This document shows, piece after piece, positions 1 through 50,885 of a stretch of DNA of 64,000 bases; position 1 is the first letter of the stretch, and every line of letters starts with the position of its first letter. The translations under genes and the position numbers were made by a program. Source of the stretch: Ostreococcus lucimarinus (lineage: Eukaryota); the NCBI GenBank assembly GCA_000092065.1, contig CP000591.1; one strand, given 5' to 3'. Under the pieces are notes generated by a model. It did no database searches. It saw nothing but the letters and a program-made list of their open reading frames with translations, and had not been told where the DNA came from.

Positions 1-3000
1 GACGAACGCCGCCGGCGACGGCGCGGCGAGCGGCGATACGCAGTGCGACCACACTATTTGTCCGGCGAACATGCACGTCGTTGGTCACGTGTGCACGCCG
101 TGTCCACCGGGTATGAACCACCCAGGTGGCGACGACGCTTTTTTCGGCGACACGTCGTGCAGCGCCATTCTCTGCCAGTCGAATCAGCGCGTGCTGGGTC
201 ACGCGTGCGTCAGCTGTCCGCCCGGGACGACGAACGATGCGGACGACGACGCCTCGGGTGGCGACACGCAGTGCGATCCGGTCATCTGCGGAGCGCACAT
301 GCGCGTGCAAGATCACAACTGCGTGCAGTGCGTCGCCGGTAAGGAGAACGAAGCCGGCGACGACGCCTCACAAAGTAACACCGAGTGCGACGCCGTCATT
401 TGCGAGCCGAATCATCACGTGGCGGGCAATGTGTGCACGGCGTGTCCCGCCGGTCACGCGCACGCCGGCGGCGACGTGCAGCACGGCCCTGATACGTCGT
501 GCGACGAAGTGCTTTGCCACACGAACGAGCGCGTTCTCGGCCACCAGTGCGTGGCGTGTCCTCCGGGCTCGACGAACGCCGCCGGCGACGGCGCGGCGAG
601 CGGCGATACGCAGTGCGACCACACTATTTGTCCGGCGAACACGCACGTCGTTGGTCACGTGTGCACGCCGTGTCCACCGGGTATGAACCACCCAGGTGGC
701 GACGACGCTTTTTTCGGCGACACGTCGTGCAGCGCCATTCTCTGCCAGTCGAATCAGCGCGTGCTGGGTCACGCGTGCGTCAGCTGTCCGCCCGGGACGA
801 CGAACGATGCGGACGACGACGCCTCGGGTGGCGACACGCAGTGTGATCCGGTCATCTGCGGAGCGCACATGCGCGTGCAAGATCACAACTGCGTGCAGTG
901 CGTCGCCGGTAAGGAGAACGAAGCCGGTGACGACGCCTCACAAAGTAACACCGAGTGCGACGCCGTCATTTGCGAGCCGAATCATCACGTGGCGGGCAAT
1001 GTGTGCACGGCGTGTCCCGCCGGTCACGCGCACGCCGGCGGCGACGTGCAGCACGGCCCTGATACGTCGTGCGACGAAGTGCTTTGCCACACGAACGAGC
1101 GCGTTCTCGGCCACCAGTGCGTGGCGTGTCCTCCGGGCTCGACGAACGCCGCCGGCGACGGCGCGGCGAGCGGCGATACACAGTGCGACCACACTATTTG
1201 TCCGGCGAACACGCACGTCGTTGGTCACGTGTGCACGCCGTGCGCGCCGGGTCGTGACCACCCAGGTGGCGACGATGCGACTCTCGGCGACACGTCGTGC
1301 AGTGCCATCATGTGCGGGCCCAACCAGCACGTCGTGAGCCACGCTTGCACGGTGTGTCCAGCAGGAATGGTTAACGATGCGAACGACGACGCTTCGGGTG
1401 GCGACACGCATTGCGATCCGATACTGTGTCCATCGAATCAACGCGTGCAGGGTCATACGTGTGTGCAATGTGCGCCCGGGAAGACCAACGCACCCAATGA
1501 TGATGCCTCTAGGGGCGACACTGAGTGCGATATTACGTACTGCGCCGCAAATCAGCGCGTACAGGGCCATCAATGTGTCGCGTGTGCGCCCGGCACGACG
1601 AACGATGCCGGCGATGACGCCTCGCAAGTCGACACGCAGTGCGCTCCGATCATTTGTGGCGCACACATGCGAGTTCAAAGTCACGCGTGCGTACAGTGCG
1701 TCCCGGGTCGCGAGAACCTGGCGGGTGACGACGCCTCCGGCCAAGATACACCCTGCGATGAAATCGTGTGCGAAGAGAACCACAAGGTCGTGAGCCACCA
1801 GTGCGTGGCGTGCCCCGCGGGGAAGATACACACGGCTGGCGATGTTGCTTCGGGGCCAGACACGTCTTGCGACGCGGTGACGTGTAGCACGAACGAGCGC
1901 GTTCAAGGCCACCAGTGCGTGGCGTGTCCGGCCGGCACGACAAACGACGGCGGCGACGACGCGTCGGGTGGCGACACGCAGTGCGATCCGGTCATTTGTC
2001 CAGCACAAACGCACGTACAAAACCACGTGTGTGAGGTGTGTCCTCCCGGTCATGCGCACCCAGGTGGTGACGACGCGTCTCAAGGCGACACGCAGTGCGA
2101 CGCAGTGATGTGTGGGGCAAATTATCACGTGCAAGATCATCATTGCGTGCCATGTCCAACGGGTAAAGACAATCAAGCGAACGACAATGCCGCGGGCGCA
2201 GATACAGAGTGCGACATCATCTATTGTGCTGCCAATCAACGCGTACAAAACAACGTCTGTACCGCGTGTCCGCCCGGCACAATTAATGCAGGCGGTGATA
2301 ACGCGTTTGACCATGATACCACTTGCGATACCGTTTATTGCGGCGTGAATCAACACGTCTTTGAAAATGAATGCGTCCCTTGTCCGGCAGGGATGGTAAA
2401 CCCGTCGGGAGACGACGCCACCGGGCCCCGCACGTTTTGCGAGCCAATCATCTGCGGCGCGCACATGCACGTACAGAATCATCAGTGCGTGCAATGTGCT
2501 CCAGGTGATGAAAATTTGGCTGGCGATAGTGCCGCGCAACACGATACCACCTGCGACGAGGTCACTTGTTCTGCGAACGAGCACGTGGTGAGCCACCAAT
2601 GCACGGCGTGTCCCGCCGGTCACGCGCACGCTGGCGGCGACGTGCAGCACGGCCCTGATACGTCGTGCGACGAAGTGCTTTGCCACACGAACGAGCGCGT
2701 TCAAGGCCACCAGTGCGTGGCGTGTCCTCCGGGCTCGACGAACGCCGCCGGCGACGGCGCGGCAAGCGGCGATACGCAGTGCGACCACACTATTTGTCCG
2801 GCGAACACGCACGTCGTCGGTCACGTGTGCACGCCGTGCGCGCCAGGCTACGAACGACTTGCCGGCGACGACGCCACCGGTGGTGATACGCAATGCAGTG
2901 CTGTCTTGTGCGGCGCAAACATGCACGTGCAGAATAATTTGTGCGCGGCGTGCCCCGCTGGCACGACGAACGCCGCCGGCGACGACGCCTCGCGAGGAAA

Positions 3001-6000
3001 CTCGGAATGCGATCACACTATCTGCGAAGCGCACATGCGAGTGCAGAGTCATCAGTGCGTCGCGTGCATGGATGGCAAGGAAAATCTGGCGGGAGACGAT
3101 GCCGCTGGGGGGGACACACAATGCGATGAAGTCATCTGCGCTGCCGATCATCATGTATTAAACCATCAGTGTGTATCGTGCCCTTACGGTCACGCGCACG
3201 CCGGCGGCGACGTGCAGCACGGCCCTGATACGTCGTGCGACGAAGTGCTTTGCCACACGAACGAGCGCGTTCTCGGCCACCAGTGCGTGGCGTGTCCTCC
3301 GGGCTCAACGAACGCCGCCGGCGACGGCGCGGCGAGCGGCGATACGCAGTGCGACCACACTATTTGTCCGGCGAACACGCACGTCGTTGGTCACGTGTGC
3401 ACGCCGTGCGCGCCGGGTCGTGAACACCCAGCCGGCGACGACGCCACCGGTGGTGATACGCAATGCAGCGCCGTGATGTGCGGATCCAACATGCACGTCC
3501 AAAACCACGTGTGCACGGCGTGCCCGGCCGGGACGACGAACGCCGCCGGCGACGACGCTTCCGGAGCGAATACGCAGTGCGACCCAATCTTGTGTGGCGC
3601 GAACCAACACGTCTTGAATCATCAGTGCATGCAGTGCCCGCCCGGCACGCTCAATGACGCCAGCGATAGCGCTGCCGGTGGTAATACGCAGTGCGACGCC
3701 GTGCAGTGCGGCTGCAACCAACGCGTGCAGGGCCATCAATGTGTCACGTGTGCGCCCGGGACGACGAACGACGCCGGCGATGACGCCTCACAAGGCGATA
3801 CGCAGTGCGATCCGACCATCTGCGGCGCGCACATGCGAGTGCAAGATCACGCGTGCGTAGCGTGTGTGGACGGTCGAGAGAACCTGGCGGGTGACGACGC
3901 CTCACAAGGCAACACGCAGTGCGACGAAATCGTGTGCGAAGAGAACCACAAGGTCGTGAGCCACCAGTGCGTGGCGTGCCCCGCGGGGAAGATACACACG
4001 GCTGGCGATATTGCTTCGGGCCCAGACACGTCTTGCGACGCGGTGACGTGTAGCACGAACGAGCGCGTTCAAGGCCACCAGTGCGTGGCGTGTCCGGCTG
4101 GCACGACAAACGACGGCGGCGACGACGCGTCGGGTGGCGACACGCAGTGCGATATTACCCGGTGCACGGCGCACATGCACGTACAAAACCATGTGTGCGT
4201 GCAGTGCCCGGCCGGTAAAGAGAACGTCGCGGGTGATGACGCCTCTGGAGGTAACACGGAATGCGACGTCGTGCGATGCGGTGCCAACCAGCACGTCGTC
4301 GACCACGTGTGCACGGCGTGTCCGGCCGGGACGACGAACGATGAAGGCGACGACGCTTCGGGAGCGAACACGCAGTGCGATCCCGTCATCTGTGAATTGC
4401 ACATGCGAGTGCAGAATCATCAGTGCGTCGCGTGTGCGCCTGGCAAGGAGAATCTGGCGGGCGACGACGCCTCGCAAGGTAACACCGAGTGCGACGCCGT
4501 CATTTGTTCTGCGAACGAGCACGTGGTGAGCCACCAATGCACGGCGTGTCCCGCCGGTCACGCGCACGCCGGCGGCGACGTGCAGCACGGCCCTGATACG
4601 TCGTGCGACGAAGTGCTTTGCCACACGAACGAGCGCGTTCTCGGCCACCAGTGCGTGGCGTGTCCTCCGGGCTCAACGAACGCCGCCGGCGACGGCGCGG
4701 CGAGCGGCGATACGCAGTGCGACCACACTATTTGCCCTGCGAACACGCACGTCGTCGGTCACGCGTGCACGCCGTGTCCGCCAGGTCATGAACACCCGGC
4801 CGGCGACGACGCCACCGGTGGTGATACGCAATGCAGCGCCGTGTCGTGTGGGCCCAACATGCACGTCCAAAACCACGCGTGCACGGCGTGCCCGGCCGGG
4901 ACGACGAACGCCGCCGGCGACGACGCTTCTGGAGCGAATACGCAGTGCGATGCGACAATTTGCGCACACAACAAGCATGTTGTCAACCACGAGTGTGTTC
5001 CGTGTCCAGATGGCCATGAACACCCAGGCGTCGCTGATGCTTCTGGCTCCGATACTTCGTGTGATGTCACGCTGTGTGGCGCGAACCAACACGTCGTGAA
5101 TCATCAGTGCATGCAGTGCCCCCCCGGCACGCTCAATGACGCCAGCGATAGCGCTGCCGGTGGTAATACGCAGTGCGACACCGTGCAGTGCGGCGTCAAC
5201 CAACGCGTGCAGGGCCATCAATGTGTCACGTGTGCGCCCGGGACGACGAACGACGCCGGCGATGACGCCTCACAAGGCGATACGCAGTGCGATCCGACCA
5301 TCTGCGGCGCGCACATGCGAGTGCAAGATCACGCGTGCGTAGCGTGTGTGGACGGTCGAGAGAACCTGGCGGGTGACGACGCCTCACAAGGCAACACGCA
5401 GTGCGACGAAATCGTGTGCGAAGAGAACCACAAGGTCGTGAGCCACCAGTGCGTGGCGTGCCCCGCGGGGAAGATACACACGGCTGGCGATATTGCTTCG
5501 GGCCCAGACACGTCTTGCGACGCGGTGACGTGTAGCACGAACGAGCGCGTTCAAGGCCACCAGTGCGTGGCGTGTCCGGCTGGCACGACAAACGACGGCG
5601 GCGACGACGCGTCGGGTGGCGACACGCAGTGCGATATTACCCGGTGCACGGCGCACATGCACGTACAAAACCATGTGTGCGTGCAGTGCCCGGCCGGTAA
5701 AGAGAACGTCGCGGGTGATGACGCCTCTGGAGGTAACACGGAATGCGACGTCGTGCGATGCGGTGCCAACCAGCACGTCGTCGACCACGTGTGCACGGCG
5801 TGTCCGGCCGGGACGACGAACGATGAAGGCGACGACGCTTCGGGAGCGAACACGCAGTGCGATCCCGTCATCTGTGAATTGCACATGCGAGTGCAGAATC
5901 ATCAGTGCGTCGCGTGTGCGCCTGGCAAGGAGAACGAAGCCGGCGACGACGCCTCGCAAGGTAACACCGAGTGCGACGCCGTCATTTGTTCTGCGAACGA

Positions 6001-8278
6001 GCACGTGGTGAGCCACCAATGCACGGCGTGTCCCGCCGGTCACGCGCACGCCGGCGGCGACGTGCAGCACGGCCCTGATACGTCGTGCGACGAAGTGCTT
6101 TGCCACACGAACGAGCGCGTTCTCGGCCACCAGTGCGTGGCGTGTCCTCCGGGCTCAACGAACGCCGCCGGTGACGGCGCGGCGAGCGGCGATACGCAGT
6201 GCGACCACACTATTTGCCCTGCGAACACGCACGTCGTCGGTCACGCGTGCACGCCGTGTCCGCCAGGTCATGAACACCCGGCCGGCGACGACGCCACCGG
6301 TGGTGATACGCAATGCAGCGCCGTGATGTGCGGATCCAACATGCACGTCCAAAACCACGTGTGCACGGCGTGCCCGGCCGGGACGACGAACGCCGCCGGC
6401 GACGACGCTTCTGGAGCGAATACGCAGTGTGATGTCACGCTGTGCGGCGCGAACCAACACGTCGTGAATCATCAGTGCATGCAGTGCCCGCCCGGCACGC
6501 TCAATGACGCCAGCGATAGCGCTGCCGGTGGTAATACGCAGTGCGACGCCGTGCAGTGCGGCTGCAACCAACGCGTGCAGGGCCATCAATGTGTCACGTG
6601 TGCGCCCGGGACGACGAACGACGCCGGCGATGACGCCTCACAAGGCGATACGCAGTGCGATCCGACCATCTGCGGCGCGCACATGCGAGTGCAAGATCAC
6701 GCGTGCGTAGCGTGTGTGGACGGTCGAGAGAACCTGGCGGGTGACGACGCCTCACAAGGCAACACGCAGTGCGACGAAATCGTGTGCGAAGAGAACCACA
6801 AGGTCGTGAGCCACCAGTGCGTGGCGTGCCCCGCGGGGAAGATACACACGGCTGGCGATATTGCTTCGGGCCCAGACACGTCTTGCGACGCGGTGACGTG
6901 TAGCACGAACGAGCGCGTTCAAGGCCACCAGTGCGTGGCGTGTCCGGCTGGCACGACAAACGACGGCGGCGACGACGCGTCGGGTGGCGACACGCAGTGC
7001 GATATTACCCGGTGCACGGCGCACATGCACGTACAAAACCATGTGTGCGTGCAGTGCCCGGCCGGTAAAGAGAACGTCGCGGGTGATGACGCCTCTGGAG
7101 GTAACACGGAATGCGACGTCGTGCGATGCGGTGCCAACCAGCACGTCGTCGACCACGTGTGCACGGCGTGTCCGGCCGGGACGACGAACGATGAAGGCGA
7201 CGACGCTTCGGGAGCGAACACGCAGTGCGATCCCGTCATCTGTGAATTGCACATGCGAGTGCAGAATCATCAGTGCGTCGCGTGTGCGCCTGGCAAGGAG
7301 AACGAAGCCGGCGACGACGCCTCGCAAGGTAACACCGAGTGCGACGCCGTCATTTGTTCTGCGAACGAGCACGTGGTGAGCCACCAATGCACGGCGTGTC
7401 CCGCCGGTCACGCGCACGCTGGCGGCGACGTGCAGCACGGCCCTGATACGTCGTGCGACGAAGTGCTGTGCCACACGAACGAGCGCGTTCTCGGCCACCA
7501 GTGCGTGGCGTGTCCTCCGGGCTCAACGAACGCCGCCGGCGACGGCGCGGCGAGCGGCGATACGCAGTGCGACCACACCATTTGCCCTGCGAACACGCAC
7601 GTCGTCGGTCACGCGTGCACGCCGTGTCCGCCAGGTCATGAACACCCGGCCGGCGACGACGCCACCGGTGGTGATACGCAATGCAGCGCCGTGTCGTGCG
7701 GGCCCAACATGCACGTCCAAAACCACGTGTGCACGGCGTGCCCGGCCGGGACGTGGAACGATGAAGGCGATGACGCTTCCGGTGCGAACACGCAGTGCGA
7801 TCCGGTCATCTGTGAAGTGCACATGCGAGTGCACGATCACGCGTGCGTTGCGTGTGCGCCTGGCAAGGAGAACGAAGCCGGCGACGACGCCTCGCAAGGT
7901 AACACCGAGTGCGACGCCGTCATTTGCGAGCCGAATCATCACGTGGCGGGCAATGTGTGCACGGCGTGTCCCGCCGGTCACGCGCACGCCGGCGGCGACG
8001 TGCAGCACGGCCCTGATACGTCGTGCGACGAAGTGCTTTGCCACACGAACGAGCGCGTTCAAGACCACCAGTGCGTGGCGTGTCCTCCGGGCTCGACGAA
8101 CGCCGCCGGCGACGGCGTGGCAAGCGGCAATACGCAGTGCGACAGCACTATTTGCGGGGCGAACAGGTACGTATCAAACCATGTGTGCGTGCTTTGCCCT
8201 TACCAACACTATCGCGCCGCCGGCGACGACGCCACCGGTCCCGACACGGCATGTATACGATATTACGGTCTCGGATAG
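1..8278 (+). CDS. Giant secreted/surface-type cysteine-rich tandem-repeat protein. Ephrin-receptor-like / TNFR-like 'CxxCPxG' repeats, about 72 units of 38 aa. 5'-truncated by the window edge.
   Basis: The frame is open from nt 2 and the ORF track shows 2,735 aa. nt 1-60 repeat nt 570-629, so the gene continues upstream. The unit is C-x2-C-P-x-G-x5-GDDA-x-GDT-x-C-x4-C-x9, 114 nt long. Stop at 8278, followed by an AT-rich 3' region. Confidence 0.8.
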   Translation, partial: TNAAGDGAASGDTQCDHTICPANMHVVGHVCTPCPPGMNHPGGDDAFFGDTSCSAILCQSNQRVLGHACVSCPPGTTNDADDDASGGDTQCDPVICGAHMRVQDHNCVQCVAGKENEAGDDASQSNTECDAVICEPNHHVAGNVCTACPAGHAHAGGDVQHGPDTSCDEVLCHTNERVLGHQCVACPPGSTNAAGDGAASGDTQCDHTICPANTHVVGHVCTPCPPGMNHPGGDDAFFGDTSCSAILCQSNQRVLGHACVSCPPGTTNDADDDASGGDTQCDPVICGAHMRVQDHNCVQCVAGKENEAGDDASQSNTECDAVICEPNHHVAGNVCTACPAGHAHAGGDVQHGPDTSCDEVLCHTNERVLGHQCVACPPGSTNAAGDGAASGDTQCDHTICPANTHVVGHVCTPCAPGRDHPGGDDATLGDTSCSAIMCGPNQHVVSHACTVCPAGMVNDANDDASGGDTHCDPILCPSNQRVQGHTCVQCAPGKTNAPNDDASRGDTECDITYCAANQRVQGHQCVACAPGTTNDAGDDASQVDTQCAPIICGAHMRVQSHACVQCVPGRENLAGDDASGQDTPCDEIVCEENHKVVSHQCVACPAGKIHTAGDVASGPDTSCDAVTCSTNERVQGHQCVACPAGTTNDGGDDASGGDTQCDPVICPAQTHVQNHVCEVCPPGHAHPGGDDASQGDTQCDAVMCGANYHVQDHHCVPCPTGKDNQANDNAAGADTECDIIYCAANQRVQNNVCTACPPGTINAGGDNAFDHDTTCDTVYCGVNQHVFENECVPCPAGMVNPSGDDATGPRTFCEPIICGAHMHVQNHQCVQCAPGDENLAGDSAAQHDTTCDEVTCSANEHVVSHQCTACPAGHAHAGGDVQHGPDTSCDEVLCHTNERVQGHQCVACPPGSTNAAGDGAASGDTQCDHTICPANTHVVGHVCTPCAPGYERLAGDDATGGDTQCSAVLCGANMHVQNNLCAACPAGTTNAAGDDASRGNSECDHTICEAHMRVQSHQCVACMDGKENLAGDDAAGGDTQCDEVICAADHHVLNHQCVSCPYGHAHAGGDVQHGPDTSCDEVLCHTNERVLGHQCVACPPGSTNAAGDGAASGDTQCDHTICPANTHVVGHVCTPCAPGREHPAGDDATGGDTQCSAVMCGSNMHVQNHVCTACPAGTTNAAGDDASGANTQCDPILCGANQHVLNHQCMQCPPGTLNDASDSAAGGNTQCDAVQCGCNQRVQGHQCVTCAPGTTNDAGDDASQGDTQCDPTICGAHMRVQDHACVACVDGRENLAGDDASQGNTQCDEIVCEENHKVVSHQCVACPAGKIHTAGDIASGPDTSCDAVTCSTNERVQGHQCVACPAGTTNDGGDDASGGDTQCDITRCTAHMHVQNHVCVQCPAGKENVAGDDASGGNTECDVVRCGANQHVVDHVCTACPAGTTNDEGDDASGANTQCDPVICELHMRVQNHQCVACAPGKENLAGDDASQGNTECDAVICSANEHVVSHQCTACPAGHAHAGGDVQHGPDTSCDEVLCHTNERVLGHQCVACPPGSTNAAGDGAASGDTQCDHTICPANTHVVGHACTPCPPGHEHPAGDDATGGDTQCSAVSCGPNMHVQNHACTACPAGTTNAAGDDASGANTQCDATICAHNKHVVNHECVPCPDGHEHPGVADASGSDTSCDVTLCGANQHVVNHQCMQCPPGTLNDASDSAAGGNTQCDTVQCGVNQRVQGHQCVTCAPGTTNDAGDDASQGDTQCDPTICGAHMRVQDHACVACVDGRENLAGDDASQGNTQCDEIVCEENHKVVSHQCVACPAGKIHTAGDIASGPDTSCDAVTCSTNERVQGHQCVACPAGTTNDGGDDASGGDTQCDITRCTAHMHVQNHVCVQCPAGKENVAGDDASGGNTECDVVRCGANQHVVDHVCTACPAGTTNDEGDDASGANTQCDPVICELHMRVQNHQCVACAPGKENEAGDDASQGNTECDAVICSANEHVVSHQCTACPAGHAHAGGDVQHGPDTSCDEVLCHTNERVLGHQCVACPPGSTNAAGDGAASGDTQCDHTICPANTHVVGHACTPCPPGHEHPAGDDATGGDTQCSAVMCGSNMHVQNHVCTACPAGTTNAAGDDASGANTQCDVTLCGANQHVVNHQCMQCPPGTLNDASDSAAGGNTQCDAVQCGCNQRVQGHQCVTCAPGTTNDAGDDASQGDTQCDPTICGAHMRVQDHACVACVDGRENLAGDDASQGNTQCDEIVCEENHKVVSHQCVACPAGKIHTAGDIASGPDTSCDAVTCSTNERVQGHQCVACPAGTTNDGGDDASGGDTQCDITRCTAHMHVQNHVCVQCPAGKENVAGDDASGGNTECDVVRCGANQHVVDHVCTACPAGTTNDEGDDASGANTQCDPVICELHMRVQNHQCVACAPGKENEAGDDASQGNTECDAVICSANEHVVSHQCTACPAGHAHAGGDVQHGPDTSCDEVLCHTNERVLGHQCVACPPGSTNAAGDGAASGDTQCDHTICPANTHVVGHACTPCPPGHEHPAGDDATGGDTQCSAVSCGPNMHVQNHVCTACPAGTWNDEGDDASGANTQCDPVICEVHMRVHDHACVACAPGKENEAGDDASQGNTECDAVICEPNHHVAGNVCTACPAGHAHAGGDVQHGPDTSCDEVLCHTNERVQDHQCVACPPGSTNAAGDGVASGNTQCDSTICGANRYVSNHVCVLCPYQHYRAAGDDATGPDTACIRYYGLG

Positions 8279-33953: not shown

Positions 33954-34435
33954 TCGCCGCGTCCGCGGACGCGGACGCTTCCAAACGAAAACCCATCCCA
34001 AGTCGCTCACCTCGCGTCGCCGCGCGCGCGTGGTGACGTCGCGCCCCCGACGTCGACATCGCGCACACCGCGTCGCGCGCGACCGTCCGTCGCGCGTCGT
34101 CCGCTCGCAAACCGACGCGAGTTTTTCTCACCGTCCACCGCTCGCGCGCCCGCGCGCGAACGACGCGCGCGCGCCCGCACGGACGCGCGAACGCGACGCG
34201 CGCGCCGGGCGGCGACGAGGGCATCGCGTGACGACGCGCATCGCGACGGTTTTCGCGCGACACGCGCGCGTCGAGCGCGTGCGAAGGCGCGAACGCGCGC
34301 GAGCAGGCGCGCGCGAAGGAACCGCGAGAGTCGGCGCGCGCGGAGAGGCGAGAACCGGCGCGCGCGGGCGAGGAAGGCGCGGTGAAGACGCGGTGAAGGT
34401 TGATCGAATCAAAAAGCGCTCGAACGGGACGCGCG

Positions 34436-36301
34436 ATGGCGACGAAACCGGGCGCGTTGTATGACTTCCCGTGGGCGGAGTGGGGATCGATGAAGTATGC
34501 GGTGTTTTTGCCGTTCGTGGCGACGGTAGCGCTCGGAAAAGACGATGGGGATTCGTTTTGTTGGCACTTGTTGGCGATCGCGGCGCTGCGGTACGCGAGC
34601 GCGCAACTTTGGATAAGCTTGTCGCGAGTGCACGCGTGGACGAGGAAAACGCGGATACAAGCCAGAGGGATCGACTTTAAACAGGTCGATAGGGAGGATA
34701 ATTGGGATGATTACATATTGCTCCAAACGCTGGTGATCGCGCTCGTGCATTGGATGCCGGGATTGGGGTTTAATAATTTCCCGGCGACGAATGAAAAGAC
34801 GGCGGTGCAGCTGTTGTTGTTGCACGCGGGGCCGACTGAGTTCATTTATTATTGGCTGCATCGCGCGTTGCATCATCACAAATTGTACAGTGCGTATCAC
34901 TCGCATCATCACGCGAGCTTTGTCACCGAACCGATCACCGGGAGCGTGCATCCGTTCATGGAGCACTTGATGTACACCGCGAACTTCGCCATTCCGCTCA
35001 TCGGGACGTGGGCGCTCGGCGGCGGCTCCATCGCGATGTTTTACATGTACTTGCTCGGCTTTGACATGCTCAACGCCATCGGGCACTGTAACTTTGAGTT
35101 CATCCCGCGTTGGTTCATGAGACTGCCGCTGATGAAGTACTTGATTTACACGCCGAGCTATCATTCGTTGCACCACTCGCGCGTGCACACAAATTTTTGC
35201 TTGTTCATGCCGCTGTACGACCACGTGTACGGCACAGCGGATGTAACGAGCGACGAGTTGTACGAGAAGGCGATCAATGGGCGGGCGGTACCGGTCACGG
35301 CGCCTGATGTGGTGTTTATGGCCCACGGAACTGAGTTATTGAGCGTGTTCCACTTGCCTTTCATGTTGCGCAGCTTTTCGTCTCGCCCGTTTGTCTCGCA
35401 GTGGTGGCTGAAACCGTTTTGGCCGCTGTGCGTGCCTTTTGTGCTTGTGTTGCGAATGTTCGGCAAATCTTTCGTAGCCGATCGACACCGGCTCAAGACG
35501 TTGAACTGTGAGACGTGGGTGACGCCCGCGTGGGGGTTTCAATTCTTCATCAAGAGTGAATTTAATCACATCAACAGGAAGATTGAGGAGGCGATTTTGG
35601 ACGCCGATCGCGCCGGAGTGAAAGTCGTCGGCTTGGGAGCGCTGAATAAGAACGAGGCGCTAAACGGGGGAGGCGCACTGTTCGTCAACAAGCATGGGAA
35701 GTCTCTGAAGACGAGAGTCGTGCACGGGAACACGCTCACGGCGGCGGCGATTTTACAGAAAATCCCGAGCGAGTGCAAGGAAATTTTCCTCACGGGGGCG
35801 ACGTCCAAACTTGGACGAGCGATCGCTCTTTATTGCGTGGAGAGAGGCATGCGTGTGGTGATGTACACAACGAGCGAAGAGAGGTTCGAAAAGATCAGAA
35901 ATGAAGCGGCGAAGAAGGATCAGCATCTCCTCGTGCAATCTACGTCCCTGAGCGACGGGGCAAAGATAAAGGACTGGGTCATCGGCAAGCACTGCCCGGA
36001 GAAGGATCAAAATATGGCGCCGAGGGGCGCGATATTCCACCAGTTTGTCGTGCCGCCAATCCCCGAAACGCGAAAGGATTGCGTGTACACCGACCTGCCC
36101 GCGTTCAAGCTTCCTAAAGAGGCAAAAGACTTCCGGTCATGCGAGATGACGATGAAGCGTGGTCACATTCACGCGTGCCACGCGGGCGCCCTCGTGCACT
36201 CGCTAGAAGGCTGGGATCACCACGAAGTCGGTGCCATCGACCACACGCGCATAGATACTACTTGGGAAGCGGCGCTGAAGCACGGATTCGCCTTGGCTTA
36301 A
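34436..36301 (+). CDS. CER1/CER3 (ECERIFERUM)-like protein, with a fatty-acid hydroxylase/His-box domain plus a WAX2 C-terminal domain.
   Basis: ATG at 34436. MATKPGALYDFPWAEWGSMKY matches the CER1 N-terminus. NWDDYILLQ also matches. His boxes HRALHHHKLYSAYHSHHH and SYHSLHH. C-terminal NAD(P)-binding-like GLGALNKNE...LTGATSKLGRAIALY. Confidence 0.85.
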   Translation: MATKPGALYDFPWAEWGSMKYAVFLPFVATVALGKDDGDSFCWHLLAIAALRYASAQLWISLSRVHAWTRKTRIQARGIDFKQVDREDNWDDYILLQTLVIALVHWMPGLGFNNFPATNEKTAVQLLLLHAGPTEFIYYWLHRALHHHKLYSAYHSHHHASFVTEPITGSVHPFMEHLMYTANFAIPLIGTWALGGGSIAMFYMYLLGFDMLNAIGHCNFEFIPRWFMRLPLMKYLIYTPSYHSLHHSRVHTNFCLFMPLYDHVYGTADVTSDELYEKAINGRAVPVTAPDVVFMAHGTELLSVFHLPFMLRSFSSRPFVSQWWLKPFWPLCVPFVLVLRMFGKSFVADRHRLKTLNCETWVTPAWGFQFFIKSEFNHINRKIEEAILDADRAGVKVVGLGALNKNEALNGGGALFVNKHGKSLKTRVVHGNTLTAAAILQKIPSECKEIFLTGATSKLGRAIALYCVERGMRVVMYTTSEERFEKIRNEAAKKDQHLLVQSTSLSDGAKIKDWVIGKHCPEKDQNMAPRGAIFHQFVVPPIPETRKDCVYTDLPAFKLPKEAKDFRSCEMTMKRGHIHACHAGALVHSLEGWDHHEVGAIDHTRIDTTWEAALKHGFALA

Positions 36302-38530: not shown

Positions 38531-38617
38531 GGGGCGTTGTGCGGGACGAAGCGCGAGACGACTGGCGACGGGCGAAACCGAACCGGCGAGCTAGCGGTGG
38601 GTACTAATACAACGCGC

Positions 38618-40825
38618 TCAGGACGCGTTCAGGATGGACTGTCGAAGTTGCGAAATCACCTGCGCGGGATTGGCGGCGCCGAAGACGGCGCTGCCGGCGA
38701 CGAGGACGTTGGCGCCGGCGCGCGCGCAGAGCTCGGCGGTGCTCGGATTGACGCCGCCGTCCATTTGAATGTCCAAGTCTGGATACCTCGCGCGGAGGGC
38801 GGAGACTTTGTCACACACCGCGGGGTTGAACTTTTGACCACCGAACCCGGGTTCGACGGACAAGCACAGGACCATGTCGACGAGACCGGCGTCGACGAGC
38901 TCGTACACGCCGCCGTCTTCGTCGCACGGCGTGGACGGTTTGCACGCCACGGCGGCGCGCATGCCGAGCGATCGAATGGTTTTGCAGAGCTCCTCTGCGG
39001 CGGTACCGCTGACAACTTCGATATGGAACGTCACGCTCGACGCACCGGCGGCGGCGAGCGCGGGAACGAGCGTCGCAGGATTGCTCACGCTCAAGTGACA
39101 ATCGAAGAACGCGTCGCGCGGGCCGACGCGTTTCGCCAAATCCGCCACCACGGGAGGACCGATGGTCAAATTAGGGACGAAATGTCCGTCCATGATGTCG
39201 ACGTGCAACCAATCAGCGCCTTCGTCGAGCATGCGGTTGACTTCGGAGGCTAAAGCGCCTTGGTCGGCCGCCAACAGTGACGGGCAAACGATGGCGCGTT
39301 TGGTCGTCGAAACCGCGGGCGCTCGGCGCGCGCCCCACGTCTCGCGGAATGACGGATATAGTCGTAGGTACGCGGCGTACACGTCGGCATACGCTGCGTG
39401 TGCCTCTGGGTTCGGACTGATGACGCGCGATTTGCGAACCATCGCCGCGACGGCTTCGCGCACGCTTCCAAACAACCCCGCGCCGAAGGCGGCGAGTATT
39501 GCGCAACCGAGCGCGGGGGCGTCCGAACACTCGGTGACGACATGCGGCACTCCCGTGACGTCGGCGTGAATCTGTAACCAAAGTTCGCTTCGCGTCGCCC
39601 CGCCGGCGATGACGACTTCCTTCGGTTCGTACCCTCCGCGGGTCATGGTTTCAAAAATCAATCGCGTACCGCAACACACGCCCTCCAAAATCGCACGGAA
39701 CACGTGCGCTTTCGAGTGCTTGAGCGTGAGACCGGAGATCACTCCGCGGCTGAGTGCGTCCACGTGCGGGGTTCGGTTGCCTTGAAAGTGGTCGAGCGCG
39801 ACGACGCCTTCGCATCCAGGCGGGATCGCGCTCGCTTCGCGGTTCATGTCGTCGTAAAACGAATCGCCGCCGCCGCATAAATTCTTAAACCAATTCACCA
39901 CGGACCCCGTGCTCGTCTGACCACCCTCGACGACGAACGGCGCGCTCTCCACGAGCGCGTTTCTATACGTCCCGAAGATACCCTTCGCGTGAAATTCCTC
40001 CTCCGCGACGCCCAAGTGCAGGTGCGACGAGCCCGTGATCAGCGCTAACTGCCCCGGTTCGATGACTCCCAGCCCGACCATTCCCACGAACGCGTCCGCG
40101 CCTCCCTGAATCACCTTCGTGCCCTCGAGCAACCCGCACGCCGCCGCCGCTCGTGCCGTCATCCCGCCCACCGCCGCGCCCATCGGTAATATCTCCTTCG
40201 GCCACTTTTCCACCAACTCCGCGCACCCAAGCTTTTCTAACATCGTCATCGGCGGTCTCCCGTCGCCGTCGAAGTGCCACCGCACGCCGACGTTGTTCAT
40301 CGACCCGCAGTACCGTCCCGTGAGCCACAGGTTTACGTAATCCTGATACTCGCAAATCATCGTCGCTCTGTCGTACCGCTCCCGGTCGTTTCGCTTCAGC
40401 CACAGCGCCTTGGGCACCATCCACTCCGCGCTCACCGGTCCCGCGCCCGCGCAGTTGACGCGAAGCGCGTCGTCTTCCGTCTCGACGCACGCCGTCGCCT
40501 CGTCGCTCGCGCGGACGTCCATCCACAGCACGCTGTTCCCGATCGCGTCGCCGCGCGCGTCGAGCGCGACGACCGAGCAGCACGTCGTGTCGACGCACAC
40601 GGCCGCGACGTCGCGCGCGTCGACGCCGCACAGGCGCCGCGCCTCGGCGATGGCGGTCGCGAGCCCGTCGAGCCACGACGCGGGGACTTGCTCGGCGCGA
40701 CCGGGCGCGGGGTGCGAGGTGGCGTACGGGACGTCGGCGAACGCGAGCGGGACGCCGGTGAGGGTGAAGACACCGGCGCGGATGCCGGTGGTGCCGCCGT
40801 CGACGCCGACGACGACGGGAGGCAT
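38618..40825 (-). CDS. Bifunctional fusion: FGGY-family carbohydrate kinase (ribulokinase/xylulokinase-like) fused to ribulose-phosphate 3-epimerase.
   Basis: One uninterrupted 735-aa ORF. N-terminal FGGY: VVGVDGGTTGIRAGVF...CVDTTCCSVVAL...AGGATRSELWLQIHADVTGVPHVV. C-terminal RPE: SLLAADQGALASEVNRMLDEGADWLHVDIMDGHFVPNLTIGPPVV...DCHLSVSNP...LCLSVEPGFGGQKF...MDGGVNPST. ATG at 40825. Confidence 0.8.
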   Translation of the reverse strand: MPPVVVGVDGGTTGIRAGVFTLTGVPLAFADVPYATSHPAPGRAEQVPASWLDGLATAIAEARRLCGVDARDVAAVCVDTTCCSVVALDARGDAIGNSVLWMDVRASDEATACVETEDDALRVNCAGAGPVSAEWMVPKALWLKRNDRERYDRATMICEYQDYVNLWLTGRYCGSMNNVGVRWHFDGDGRPPMTMLEKLGCAELVEKWPKEILPMGAAVGGMTARAAAACGLLEGTKVIQGGADAFVGMVGLGVIEPGQLALITGSSHLHLGVAEEEFHAKGIFGTYRNALVESAPFVVEGGQTSTGSVVNWFKNLCGGGDSFYDDMNREASAIPPGCEGVVALDHFQGNRTPHVDALSRGVISGLTLKHSKAHVFRAILEGVCCGTRLIFETMTRGGYEPKEVVIAGGATRSELWLQIHADVTGVPHVVTECSDAPALGCAILAAFGAGLFGSVREAVAAMVRKSRVISPNPEAHAAYADVYAAYLRLYPSFRETWGARRAPAVSTTKRAIVCPSLLAADQGALASEVNRMLDEGADWLHVDIMDGHFVPNLTIGPPVVADLAKRVGPRDAFFDCHLSVSNPATLVPALAAAGASSVTFHIEVVSGTAAEELCKTIRSLGMRAAVACKPSTPCDEDGGVYELVDAGLVDMVLCLSVEPGFGGQKFNPAVCDKVSALRARYPDLDIQMDGGVNPSTAELCARAGANVLVAGSAVFGAANPAQVISQLRQSILNAS

Positions 40826-40889
40826 GACGAGGGGGAGGCGCGCGAGGCGCGTTGAGCGGCGAGCGGCGAACGGCGACGACGCCGCGAAG

Positions 40890-47528: not shown

Positions 47529-50500
47529 TCACGGAGCGATGGTGTCTAAAGCCATGTAGGTATCGCACCAGGCGGTGTGCAGGGCGCTCGGTTCCGTCGC
47601 GTCGCGAATCGGCGGTACGCCGCGGCCGCGATACGCCGCGCGCGTGAGCTTTTCCACTTCCTCCGGCGGTCGTTCGTTCGCTAAGTTATCCCAATCGATG
47701 TCGCAGAGCAGCGCGGATCGCTTGACTAATGTGGCGTCGTGCATGCGGTCTTTTGGGTTGACCACGAGAAGCGCGCGAGCCAAGGCGACGGCTTTGGGAT
47801 CGGCGTCGCCGCGGAAGATCGTGGATAAATCGCACCGACAAATTGACTCGTACGTCTTGTGCGTGACTTTCATCCCGAACGGTGGCGTCCCGTTGAGTAA
47901 GTGCACGATGAACGTCCCGAGCGAAAACCAGTCCGCGCGTTCGTCGTGGCCGACGCCGCGAACGACTTCGGGCGCCATGTACGCCGCGGCGCCGCACGCC
48001 GTAAACGTCTTTCCGGGCGTGTCGTCCGTCACCGCGAGATGTTTAGCGAAGCGGAAGTCAGTCAACCGCAGCGCGCCGTGCTGATCGATCGTCATCGTCT
48101 CCGGGTCCATTCCTCGGAATACGATGTCCATGGCGTGGACGTACTCGAACACGAGCGTAAACGCGGCGACGTAGTACTTGACGACTTCGGGCTTGGAGCC
48201 GCCGCCGCACGCGATGACAGCTTCGAGCGCACATCTCGGCGCGAATGGGTACGGAATGGAGATGAAACTCGAGTCTTTCGATGGGATGGCGGGTATGGGA
48301 ATGAATGCCGGCGGCTTGGCTGAGCCCGCCGTGAGCATTGTGATGATGGCGCGCTCGCGCAACACGCCCTCGACTCGCGCGAGCGATTCTGTTCTCGCGA
48401 GCGAGATCTGCACCGTCGCCTCCTTAGACGCCCCCTTCGTTTCGCGCAAGTGACCGAGCAACGTCATGTACAGCGCCTCACGCGAGGCTCGCTCGTCGTC
48501 CCCGAAACTTAATCGCCGCTCGTGCGGATCTAAAGCGCGCTGGGGCGATCGGATGCGTTCCATCGACGACGATCGCTCGAGAGTGGCGCTCGACGTCCGC
48601 ACGATCGCCTCGGTTCCGGTGACGTTTGTTATATCGGTCAGCTTAACGCGCCATACCTCAACGTCGTCGCTGATGGCTTGAATATTAGTCGCACACGGCG
48701 CGCCACTTCTCGAGAGAAGCGCGCGTTCACCAAAATATTGCCCACTCGTCAACTTGAGCACCACCCTCGGCGTCTCGCTCTCGTCGCGCGCATTCGCACG
48801 CACGGTGCACGACACATCCCCCCTACTGATGATGTACATAGCATTTATCTGCTGTCCCTGACGCGCGATGAGCTCGCTTGTTTGAGCCTTTACGAGAGAT
48901 TTCCCGCGCTTATCGACGATGTTCGTGGCGATTCGGCGCAAGTCGCTGATGCTCACGGCTTTCAGCGCGTCCACGCCGCGCAGCGCGCTCGTGAGCGTGT
49001 TTACGCTCGGCTCGTCGTCCTCGCGCATGAGACGCGTGTAAGTGGCGAAGTCAAGCACCCAGAGGACCACGTCACTGTTCGCGGTGACGGTCTCGTGCGG
49101 ATTTTGGGCGTGCGCCATGCACTGTTCGTTGAAGCACATTCTGTCGCCGCCTTTGCCATACGTTCGCACCTTGACGGCTTCCTTCTTCTCCGCATTCTCG
49201 TCTCCCTCGTTCTCGACCCACGCGACGTTGTCGCGCCCCGTGAGAGTGCCACTCTGTACGGCATAAAGCGCACGCAGCGAATACTTGTCGTTTTGCGTCA
49301 CGACGACATCGCCGTCGTACACTCTTTTCCTGTACATCGCCTCCGCGACTTCGTTCAAAATCGCATCCGAGACGCCGATAAATAAGAATGATTGCTTGAG
49401 AATCGATAATAACGCCGATTTGTCCTCCGCGGTGGCGATGGACAGATCTCCCATCTGCTCTTCCAGTGAACCTCTCGTGTTGAACGAGATATCGGACGGT
49501 AAACCGTAAGGGTGCACCACGCGATAACTGCGGCGCGTTTGCATGGTGAACGACGGCACGACGCGACGTCGAGGTCTCGCCGACGTTGGGAACGGCGACG
49601 AGAGCTGGTTCGCGCGATCGGGAAAGTTGAACAGCGCACTGACGCTCACGGACTTTCTCGGCGTGACGGGATCGGGATCGGGATGGGTTTCGTCCGGGAA
49701 GTCTTCAATCAAGATGACGATGACGGTGATGTCGTCCGTGCGCGTCTCGTATTGAAGCCAGAGCTTGTACGATTCCACCACGAGCGCGATTGCGCTCTGC
49801 TGTGGATCGCTCGTCGCCATCGCGGCTTTGATCACGCTTGTGGACGGAATGAATTCGAAAACTCCATCTGAAGCGATCACGATCGCCTTCGTGTCTTTGT
49901 TCAAGCGCACGCGCTCGATTTCCGGCGTCGCGACGACGCCGATGCGCTCGGCGACGGCGTCGCCTATGGAACGAGTAAACGCCGTGCCAGGATACATCCC
50001 ATTCTTCGCCCACAGTCGCGGGGGATCGCCATCGTCGTCTTGCTCCGTCCCCCAACACTGCACGGTGGGATCTTTGAACCCCTCGAGCTGATCGAGCGTC
50101 ATCACGCGCGCGCCCGCCTTCTTCACCCGCTCGCACTCATCCGCGCGAAACGGCGTCTGATCCGAACTCAAATCCACCGTCTCCACCACAACCTCTCCCT
50201 TATCGTCCGCCTTCTCTATCCCCATCGTCGCCCGCGAGTCCCCCACGTTTATCACGTACAAATCCCTCCCCTTCACGTGCGCGATGATCCCCGTCGTCCC
50301 GCTCAACGAATCGTCCACCTCGCTCCTTCGCAGCGCCTCGTTCGTCGTTCGAAACGCCTCCTCGTACCCTTTCGCGTCCCCAAACTCTCGCTTCGCCATC
50401 TCCATCGGCACTCTCATCGCCGCGAACCTCGCGCACTCCGTTCCAAACTCCCCGTGTCCGTCGAAGACGCCGAAGACGCACTCGTCGTCGCGATCTCCAA

Positions 50501-50885
50501 ATCTCGCCTCGCTCACGTGCGCGTCCTGGTTCGCCTTGCTCAGCGCCTCTGGGTAGTACCCTCGCTGCGAGCACGCCGCGTATCGCATCGCGTACGACTG
50601 CGCGCGACCGCGTTCGTCCGTGAACGCCACTCGGACCGTCTTCGCGCCCTTGACGCCGGCGAGACGGGCGTTGTATTGCTCCTGCGTCAGCGGGCCGCCG
50701 CGCAGGCGCACTTGGTACCGCACGGGGGCGTCGTCCGTCGGATCGACGCATTCGTCGTCGTCGCGCGCGCGCGCGCGATCGGCGACGGGACGAACGGGGC
50801 GCGCGCGCGATGGAGACGCGGGCGCGCGAGGCGCCGCGTCGCGCGCGGCGCTCGCGGCGTCCGCGGCGGAGGACGCGCATCCCAT
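47529..50885 (-). CDS. PP2C phosphatase, two cNMP-binding domains and a Ser/Thr protein kinase as one tri-domain protein, with an N-terminal MGC acylation motif.
   Basis: MGCASS start (ATG at 50885). PP2C: FGVFDGHGEFG...YVINVGDSRA...ASDGVFEF. cNMP-binding: FLFIGVSDAILNEVAEAM and FGERALL...APCATNIQA. Kinase: RLTDFRFAKHL...AAYMAPEVV...DWFSLGTFIVHLL. Same architecture as Arabidopsis At2g20050. Confidence 0.85.
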   Translation of the reverse strand: MGCASSAADAASAARDAAPRAPASPSRARPVRPVADRARARDDDECVDPTDDAPVRYQVRLRGGPLTQEQYNARLAGVKGAKTVRVAFTDERGRAQSYAMRYAACSQRGYYPEALSKANQDAHVSEARFGDRDDECVFGVFDGHGEFGTECARFAAMRVPMEMAKREFGDAKGYEEAFRTTNEALRRSEVDDSLSGTTGIIAHVKGRDLYVINVGDSRATMGIEKADDKGEVVVETVDLSSDQTPFRADECERVKKAGARVMTLDQLEGFKDPTVQCWGTEQDDDGDPPRLWAKNGMYPGTAFTRSIGDAVAERIGVVATPEIERVRLNKDTKAIVIASDGVFEFIPSTSVIKAAMATSDPQQSAIALVVESYKLWLQYETRTDDITVIVILIEDFPDETHPDPDPVTPRKSVSVSALFNFPDRANQLSSPFPTSARPRRRVVPSFTMQTRRSYRVVHPYGLPSDISFNTRGSLEEQMGDLSIATAEDKSALLSILKQSFLFIGVSDAILNEVAEAMYRKRVYDGDVVVTQNDKYSLRALYAVQSGTLTGRDNVAWVENEGDENAEKKEAVKVRTYGKGGDRMCFNEQCMAHAQNPHETVTANSDVVLWVLDFATYTRLMREDDEPSVNTLTSALRGVDALKAVSISDLRRIATNIVDKRGKSLVKAQTSELIARQGQQINAMYIISRGDVSCTVRANARDESETPRVVLKLTSGQYFGERALLSRSGAPCATNIQAISDDVEVWRVKLTDITNVTGTEAIVRTSSATLERSSSMERIRSPQRALDPHERRLSFGDDERASREALYMTLLGHLRETKGASKEATVQISLARTESLARVEGVLRERAIITMLTAGSAKPPAFIPIPAIPSKDSSFISIPYPFAPRCALEAVIACGGGSKPEVVKYYVAAFTLVFEYVHAMDIVFRGMDPETMTIDQHGALRLTDFRFAKHLAVTDDTPGKTFTACGAAAYMAPEVVRGVGHDERADWFSLGTFIVHLLNGTPPFGMKVTHKTYESICRCDLSTIFRGDADPKAVALARALLVVNPKDRMHDATLVKRSALLCDIDWDNLANERPPEEVEKLTRAAYRGRGVPPIRDATEPSALHTAWCDTYMALDTIAP

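Follow-up and report, generated by a model that had tools for sequence, protein, structure and literature searches.

Does a single gene of the picoalga Ostreococcus lucimarinus encode two enzymes of pentulose metabolism in one chain, and what would such a protein do? The question is raised by an open reading frame (ORF) at positions 38618..40825 of a 64,000-nucleotide stretch of contig CP000591.1 (assembly GCA_000092065.1), hereafter called the window. An initial annotation had read this ORF as an FGGY-family sugar kinase fused to a ribulose-phosphate 3-epimerase (RPE). We find that the ORF is a genuine single fusion gene. Its kinase half appears to be a ribulokinase-branch FGGY enzyme from a distinct clade, while its epimerase half, apparently derived from a eukaryotic cytosolic RPE, has lost part of the methionine cushion of the active site. 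We lean towards a bifunctional cytosolic D-ribulose salvage enzyme, in which D-ribulose would be converted to D-ribulose 5-phosphate (Ru5P) and then to D-xylulose 5-phosphate (Xu5P).

The ORF is initiated by ATG and contains no intron. It runs for 735 codons without an internal stop, as the initial annotation had it; the strand, which had been left unstated, is the minus strand. The proposal that a complete FGGY kinase and a complete RPE share one polypeptide is borne out by three Pfam profiles, all matched essentially end to end: FGGY_N (profile 2-245 of 245, E=2e-26, 93.3 bits against a Pfam cutoff of 28.8), FGGY_C (2-197 of 198, E=3e-38, 132 bits, cutoff 27) and Ribul_P_3_epim (PF00834, residues 513-715, profile 2-198 of 198, E=3e-58, 196.9 bits, cutoff 21.1). 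Matches of this strength do not arise by chance. The features are the following, with residue numbers (aa) referring to the 735-residue protein:

38618..40825, minus strand: FGGY kinase-RPE fusion gene, 735-aa ORF, stop codon at 38618-38620
40073..40813, minus strand: FGGY_N domain (PF00370), aa 5-251
40790-40801, minus strand: DGGT phosphate-1 motif, aa 9-12, within FGGY_N
aa 78-84: VDTTCCS sugar-binding strand, within FGGY_N
40091-40105, minus strand: GGADA catalytic-base motif, aa 241-245, within FGGY_N, with the invariant D244
39482..40045, minus strand: FGGY_C domain (PF02782), aa 261-448
aa 265-268, 300-307, 345-353 and 408-413: FGGY_C motifs GSSH, EGGQTSTG, DHFQGNRTP and the ATP-site motif GGATRS
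39347..39481, minus strand: kinase C-terminal helical tail, aa 449-493, part of the FGGY fold
39296..39346, minus strand: interdomain linker, aa 494-510, GARRAPAVSTTKR region
38621..39295, minus strand: RPE domain, a (beta/alpha)8 barrel, aa 511-735
aa 541, 543, 577 and 689: RPE metal/catalytic tetrad H541, D543, H577, D689
aa 660-663, 689-691 and 711-712: RPE phosphate loops GFGG, DGG and GS
aa 545, 579 and 655: RPE methionine triad, with M545 kept and S579 and L655 where Met is expected

The border between the two halves had to be redrawn. A linker of 45 residues had been proposed at residues 466-510, but most of this segment is the C-terminal helix of the kinase (residues 473-493), and the real linker is only about 15-17 residues long. 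In an AlphaFold model built with 15 diverse fused sequences as input (mean predicted local distance difference test score, pLDDT, 86.7; predicted template modelling score, pTM, 0.67), the tail helices 455-462 and 473-493 have high pLDDT, and the two folded domains are separated by residues 494-508, the sole stretch with pLDDT below 50 and thus disordered. P471, Y479, Y486 and Y490 of the tail are invariant, also in stand-alone bacterial kinases, and the NCBIfam kinase profiles extend to residues 490-497. The linker, on the other hand, differs among homologues in both sequence and length, and no other part of the alignment has as many gaps or as much variation. Sequence matches in the PDB span either residues 5-495 (FGGY kinases) or residues 507-732 (RPEs), and no solved chain among them covers both halves. 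Channelling between the two active sites, as suggested initially, is not backed by this model, as no fixed interface can be derived from a short disordered linker and a pTM of 0.67. What the fusion probably ensures is that both halves are expressed together and in one place, rather than true channelling.

At the other end of the protein, the N-terminus (MPPVVVGVDGGT) adds only four residues ahead of the first kinase strand, and there is no upstream start codon within the about 50 in-frame codons inspected. An N-terminal transit peptide would thus not fit, which points to a cytosolic location of the fusion protein.

Could the ORF be an artefact, with adjacent genes merged through a sequencing or assembly error or through a missed intron or stop? 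The same 735-residue protein is found with the same neighbours on three independent SRA (Logan) assemblies, and near-identical members of its cluster on up to 158 metagenomic contigs. The initial annotation had proposed searching other genomes for the FGGY and RPE domain pair. This search returned the architecture in more than 130 database proteins from green algae (named carriers are Trebouxiophyceae, Chlorophyceae, Pedinophyceae and Cymbomonas), haptophytes and ochrophytes; beyond the green algae, it is carried by the xanthophyte Tribonema, the brown alga Scytosiphon and the haptophyte Prymnesium. All three Pfam domains are present in 119 of the 120 best database matches. A single transcript, for which a check had also been proposed, is supported indirectly, by transcriptome ORFs of related algae that are flagged complete and contain all three domains (P0029, P0049 and P0067, from MMETSP, and P0118). 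Across the more than 130 homologues both halves are under strong purifying selection, and D9, T12, D244, the GGATRS motif and the tetrad are invariant in the fused proteins. The sole hint of a merged gene is a few database entries with one half alone (P0070, P0536 and P0587). Set against the independent assemblies, the collinear homologues, the transcript ORFs and a frame that is unbroken across end-to-end profile matches, it leaves the artefact with a negligible probability, and we reject it.

The entries with one half alone are eukaryote-like and contain the kinase half: P0536 (520 aa) is 88% identical to the kinase half of Chlamydomonas schloesseri, P0587 is from Auxenochlorella (501 aa), and P0070 has 546 aa. 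They could be secondary fissions of the fusion, or else truncated or split gene models, perhaps including an old split model from C. reinhardtii.

The fusion also qualifies as a Rosetta-stone protein, since each half occurs as a separate protein elsewhere, the kinase in 80 bacterial loci and the cytosolic RPE in plants, red algae and fungi. The architecture had been taken for undescribed. It is however already visible in public databases, where JGI labels the fusion proteins 'ribulokinase/ribulose-phosphate 3-epimerase', although our full-text literature searches turned up no description or assay of a kinase-RPE fusion. Its one unexpected feature is the loss of the methionine cushion, and its kinase belongs to an unassigned clade. 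UniRef and NCBI names for the members vary between 'glycerol kinase', 'carbohydrate kinase' and 'ribulose-phosphate 3-epimerase'. The first of these (UniRef entries P0026, P0031, P0040, P0053, P0064, P0069, P0115, P0119 and P0560) is very likely a rule-based misannotation, as glycerol kinase models score the window protein at only about 122 bits, where their cutoff is 590.

The RPE half is best described as being of the eukaryotic cytosolic type, judging from its relatives. In the PDB these are the rice cytosolic enzyme (1h1y, 242 bits), the Toxoplasma enzyme and the human enzyme (3ovp, 199 bits), with plastid and bacterial RPEs well behind, and the best stand-alone database matches are land-plant RPEs named 'cytoplasmic isoform' (55-58% identity). 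The RPE subfamily model NF004076 is passed with 185.8 against a cutoff of 165. All motifs named in the initial annotation are in place (HVDIMDGHF at 541-549, DCHLSVSNP at 575-583, EPGFGGQKF at 658-666 and MDGG at 688-691). H541, D543, H577 and D689 correspond to human H35, D37, H70 and D175, and this tetrad is kept in 116 of 116 fused homologues together with S10/L12 and the GFG/DGG/GS phosphate loops. The accompanying statement that the metal and substrate residues are present thus stands for the tetrad and the phosphate loops, but not for the active-site methionines, two of which are replaced.

The methionine triad of human RPE (M39, M72 and M141) corresponds to Met76, Met107 and Met178 of CrRPE1, which are reported to stabilise the 2,3-enediolate intermediate (bioRxiv 10.1101/2022.09.29.510120), and to M545, S579 and L655 of the window protein. 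Among the 116 fused homologues, the position of human M72 is occupied by Ser (68), Cys (30) or Ala (18) and never by Met, that of M141 by Leu in 103, and that of M39 by Phe in 84. Most fused homologues lack all three methionines, reading F, then S, C or A, then L. In 19 additional fused proteins, haptophyte and brown-algal ones included, position 72 is likewise not Met, which brings the total to 0 of 135, the residue being Ser, Cys, Ala or Gly. As controls we used the 120 best matches to the RPE domain alone. The stand-alone RPEs among them read M,M,M in 114 of 114 cases, as do E. coli Rpe and the hexulose-phosphate enzyme AlsE. The six exceptions are evidently pieces of the fused gene, to judge from their length (190-319 aa), their short contigs and their 61-92% identity to the window protein.

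Met-72 is thus absent from all 135 fused proteins and present in all 114 stand-alone controls, and its substitution is a derived trait that the fusion family has in common. This speaks for one fusion event, and does so better than the neighbour-joining (NJ) tree of the kinases, which leaves the monophyly of the fused kinases with respect to their bacterial orthologues unsettled. The loss of part of the methionine environment of the enediolate also suggests that the epimerase half has changed in its kinetics or specificity and may in either respect differ from a housekeeping RPE.

The kinase half belongs to the FGGY family by several signs. Both actin-like ATPase domains are full length and above the Pfam gathering scores, and the catalytic and ATP-site motifs DGGT (9-12), GGADA (241-245) and GGATRS (408-413) are present, with GSSH also conserved. 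D244 is invariant in 15 fused and in 12 mixed sequences. The functional roles of such motifs (D-x-G-T, G-G-x-D-A and G-G-x-T/A-x-S) are general FGGY knowledge.

Within the family, as the initial annotation had proposed to establish by alignment to FGGY subfamilies, the nearest reference is a DarK-type D-ribulokinase, although no specificity cutoff is reached. By BLASTP, the window protein is 32% identical over 515 aa (232 bits) to the FGGY kinase that E. coli BL21(DE3) carries as an insertion in its fuc locus (WP_000551482) and that we used as the DarK-type reference. Its position agrees with that of the D-ribulokinase DarK described in PMC12307932. The other E. coli references are further away: LyxK with 23% identity (115 bits), XylB with 26% (114 bits) and AraB, the weakest of the four, with 24% (84 bits). 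The VDTTCCS and EGGQTSTG motifs follow the DarK/AraB pattern, unlike those of XylB and LyxK (the XylB strand reads IAGQMHG). From these comparisons, the kinase appears to be a ribulokinase-branch FGGY enzyme in a distinct clade, whose specificity class is not fixed by profiles. Neither a solved structure nor a characterised member of this clade was found, and the best PDB match, 3ifr, is named 'carbohydrate kinase, FGGY'.

To delimit the clade, we searched exhaustively with the kinase half and scanned the prokaryotes at one genome per species. These searches revealed a tight orthologous group of stand-alone kinases of 490-520 aa, with full-length matches to the window kinase domain, mainly in Alphaproteobacteria but also in SAR324, Deinococcota, Gemmatimonadota and other phyla. 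They are named ribulokinase or pentulose kinase at source and are 50-58% identical to the window kinase and 59-64% to the C. schloesseri domain. In the NJ tree, the bacterial orthologues and the fused algal domains form one clade, far from E. coli AraB, XylB and LyxK (22-25% identity).

The gene neighbourhoods of the bacterial orthologues were compared in 80 loci with 8-kb flanks, of which 63 were analysable for context. The commonest arrangement, seen in about 19-25 of the 63 and including the best matches (L008 and L009), has the order ABC transporter, DhaK, DhaL, E1-alpha, E1-beta, an AcoC-type lipoyl/alpha-beta-hydrolase protein, FGGY kinase and a FucU/RbsD-like mutarotase. The AcoC-type protein passes NF011457 (311.8 against a cutoff of 307), and a SorC/LsrR-like regulator often accompanies the operon. 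This arrangement suggests an oxidative ketose-cleavage pathway dependent on thiamine pyrophosphate and lipoate; no literature on a DhaKL/Aco-FGGY kinase operon was found. A second context consists of a lactonase-like gene, FucU, an L-fucose-dehydrogenase (FucDH)-like short-chain dehydrogenase/reductase (SDR) and the kinase. Other loci contain a ribokinase (TIGR02152 passed with 303.6 against 299.65), a class II aldolase that scores as FucA-like and not as AraD, or an L-fucose-dehydrogenase-like SDR with an amidohydrolase. Taken together, the contexts seem to share a pentose/fucose (D-arabinose)-type theme, which does not in itself define the substrate.

The DhaKL/Aco-kinase operon was seen in loci L008, L009, L030, L035, L036, L048, L052, L067, L074, L079 and L084, in most of which the kinase match starts at about position 8001. 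A psicose-3-epimerase-like TIM barrel of the xylose-isomerase type shares an operon with the kinase in six loci (L036, L048, L052, L069, L079 and L084), where it lies between the regulator and AcoA. Among the NCBIfam models it matches D-psicose 3-epimerase best (160 bits, under the cutoff). Together with the kinase, this barrel forms an intriguing candidate for a non-homologous counterpart of the algal pairing of a kinase with a 3-epimerase.

What, then, would the fused protein do? D-ribulose is our best guess for the substrate of the kinase, as the domain is closest to ribulokinases and above all to the DarK-type D-ribulokinase. The names of the bacterial orthologues and their pentose/fucose-type sugar clusters fit such a kinase. 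The N-terminal half would phosphorylate free D-ribulose at C5 with ATP, and the C-terminal half would epimerise the resulting D-Ru5P at C3 to D-Xu5P. Both steps would be located in the cytosol, and a dephosphorylated pentulose would in this way be salvaged, or repaired, into the pentose-phosphate and Calvin-cycle pools. We propose such a salvage or repair route because Xu5P is, in plants, the form exchanged with the plastid. The conversion of D-ribulose to Xu5P had already been put forward in the initial annotation, and it is the best supported reading through the DarK-type relation; D-ribulose is a probable substrate only, since the kinase misses every NCBIfam equivalog cutoff. We infer the identity of the substrate and the physiological role, as we do the cytosolic location, and hold this function to be somewhat probable.

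Several observations weigh against it. None of the kinase specificity cutoffs of NCBIfam, equivalog or subfamily, is reached, which leaves the substrate unassigned by profile. The highest raw score among the hidden Markov models comes from the PRK04123 ribulokinase model (NF003154; 275 bits against a cutoff of 428), and lower ones from TIGR01312 (XylB; 257 against 380), TIGR01234 (L-ribulokinase; 227 against 583) and TIGR01315 (FGGY pentulose kinase; 212 in two stretches against 408.7). In the epimerase half, the RPE equivalog TIGR01163 is narrowly missed (198.8 against 212.6), and Met-72 is missing from every one of the 135 fused proteins, a loss that may point to a non-canonical substrate or to weak activity. 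An rpe gene or RPE homologue is present within 8 kb in 0 of the 80 bacterial loci, so that the link between this kinase and RPE is specific to the eukaryotic fusion, and the commonest bacterial context (DhaK-DhaL-AcoA-AcoB-AcoC-kinase) contains no obvious pointer to D-ribulose.

The profile scores bear directly on two other substrates for the kinase. The TIGR01312 score is near that of the ribulokinase model, and some bacterial orthologues score highest with TIGR01312. The kinase might then be a D-xylulokinase, with D-xylulose converted to Xu5P and on to Ru5P, feeding, in a photosynthetic cell, ribulose 1,5-bisphosphate (RuBP) regeneration or ribose 5-phosphate synthesis; as RPE is reversible, the fusion would suit this route just as well. 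The BLASTP score of XylB is however about half that of DarK (114 against 232 bits), the XylB cutoff is missed, and the VDTTCCS strand, in place of IAGQMHG, together with the EGGQ motif is the ribulokinase pattern. We regard a D-xylulokinase as quite unlikely.

That PRK04123 gives the top score, that JGI and NCBI name relatives 'ribulokinase' and that a class II aldolase/AraD-like gene adjoins the kinase in some bacterial loci would instead suggest an AraB-type L-ribulokinase, joined to a housekeeping cytosolic RPE with no pathway logic. L-ribulose 5-phosphate is not a substrate of RPE but requires a 4-epimerase, as in the AraBAD pathway, and this counts against such a pairing. So do the rank of AraB as the weakest reference, the wide margins by which the PRK04123 and TIGR01234 cutoffs are missed, and the FucA-like rather than AraD-like nature of the neighbouring aldolase. 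A fusion lacking pathway logic is also unlikely to persist across Chlorophyta, haptophytes and ochrophytes. In our judgement this alternative is very improbable.

The altered methionines raise a further possibility, namely that the two halves have co-evolved for another substrate pair. The kinase would then act on a tetrulose, a hexulose or a deoxy-pentulose, and the RPE domain would epimerise a non-canonical phospho-ketose. A position 72 that is never Met in the fused proteins and always Met in the stand-alone controls, E. coli Rpe and AlsE fits this idea, given the reported role of the triad in stabilising the 2,3-enediolate (bioRxiv 10.1101/2022.09.29.510120). So do a kinase below every specificity cutoff and bacterial orthologues whose operon also encodes DhaKL and a ketol-cleaving complex resembling acetoin dehydrogenase. 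On the other hand, the other substrate contacts checked in the RPE domain are all canonical (S10, L12, the tetrad and the GFG/DGG/GS loops), its 55-58% identity is to bona fide plant cytosolic RPEs, and the sugar-binding motifs of the kinase are ribulokinase-like. Moreover, AlsE, which acts on a hexulose 6-phosphate, keeps all three methionines, so that their loss is no known marker of specificity. We consider another substrate pair unlikely. It can also be speculated, with the same reserve, that the fusion is a distinct two-step enzyme, in which the kinase would act on a non-textbook ketose and the RPE-derived barrel, whose methionine cushion is lost in every member, would have been retuned to epimerise the product, forming a hitherto unrecognised salvage or repair route common to green algae, haptophytes and ochrophytes; this, too, seems doubtful.

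If the D-ribulose salvage function is true, many ecologically dominant marine and freshwater algae would possess a dedicated cytosolic route by which free D-ribulose is returned to the pentose-phosphate and Calvin pools. A possible source of free D-ribulose is the dephosphorylation of abundant Ru5P/RuBP-cycle intermediates. Metabolite repair based on a D-ribulokinase has been proposed for yeast and mammals, and the algal route would complement this idea. The fusion also gives a large bacterial clade of FGGY kinases a probable pathway, and what algal metabolic models use as 'cytosolic RPE2' may in fact have two functions and a non-canonical active site. Further, the fusion family offers a natural test of what the methionine cushion contributes in RPE, and the gene, being intron-free in O. 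lucimarinus, is directly expressible.

The window around the fusion gene is compact eukaryotic nuclear DNA from a genome rich in guanine and cytosine (about 62%). It contains genes for BRCA2, APC2, CDT1, Nup96, an Omp85/Toc75-like protein and SRP-receptor beta; no tRNAs are present in it. The spacers on either side of the fusion gene are extremely short: 64 bp (40826-40889) separate it from the stop of the upstream gene, which encodes a TRAF/Sina-zinc-finger coiled-coil protein, and 87 bp (38531-38617) from the start of the next gene downstream, which is SRP-receptor-beta-like. The three genes are all intron-free ORFs on the minus strand. Elsewhere in the window, a 1118-aa ORF (47529-50885, minus strand) combines PP2C phosphatase, cyclic-nucleotide-binding and protein kinase domains in a multi-domain signalling fusion. 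A 633-aa ORF (34400-36301, plus strand) contains a fatty-acid hydroxylase domain and a CER1/WAX2-like C-terminal domain, as assigned with Pfam on the matching gene in locus L001. Its product is a candidate plant-type alkane/wax-synthesis-like protein in a picoalga. An uninterrupted ORF of 2735 aa occupies 71-8278 on the plus strand.

Among known proteins, the kinase half resembles most the DarK-type/TIGR01315 kinases, the best characterised match. They have the two-domain FGGY fold in common, and the likeness includes the sugar-binding strand D-x-T-C-S, the EGGQS motif and HGNR(T/S)P. However, the BL21(DE3) kinase is a clear member of TIGR01315 with 532 bits, against 212 for the algal domain, the algal clade is separate, and DarK has no fused epimerase. 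Human FGGY and yeast Ydr109c belong to the same group as the DarK-type D-ribulokinases.

The RPE half shares with eukaryotic cytosolic RPEs the full-length barrel, the same tetrad, S10/L12, the phosphate loops and the lack of a transit peptide, but it is attached to a kinase of 500 aa and, in the window protein, keeps one of the three methionines. A described case that comes close is RPE2 of Chlamydomonas reinhardtii (Cre02.g116450), which in the literature is a predicted cytosolic RPE only 41% identical to the plastid RPE1. The fusion is encoded by each of the closest sequenced relatives of C. reinhardtii (C. incerta, C. schloesseri and Edaphochlamys), so RPE2 is probably a member of the same protein family, although the literature treats RPE2 as a plain RPE, with the kinase domain unmentioned.

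At the level of the pathway, the fusion can be compared with bacterial pentose operons such as araB-araD and E. coli lyxK-sgbU-sgbE, in which a kinase is likewise followed by an epimerase and a free pentulose is converted to D-xylulose 5-phosphate, which enters the pentose-phosphate pathway. In these operons the epimerases are separate polypeptides of other folds, a class II aldolase-like 4-epimerase and a xylose-isomerase-like 3-epimerase, whereas in the algal protein a barrel of the RPE family is fused to the kinase in cis.

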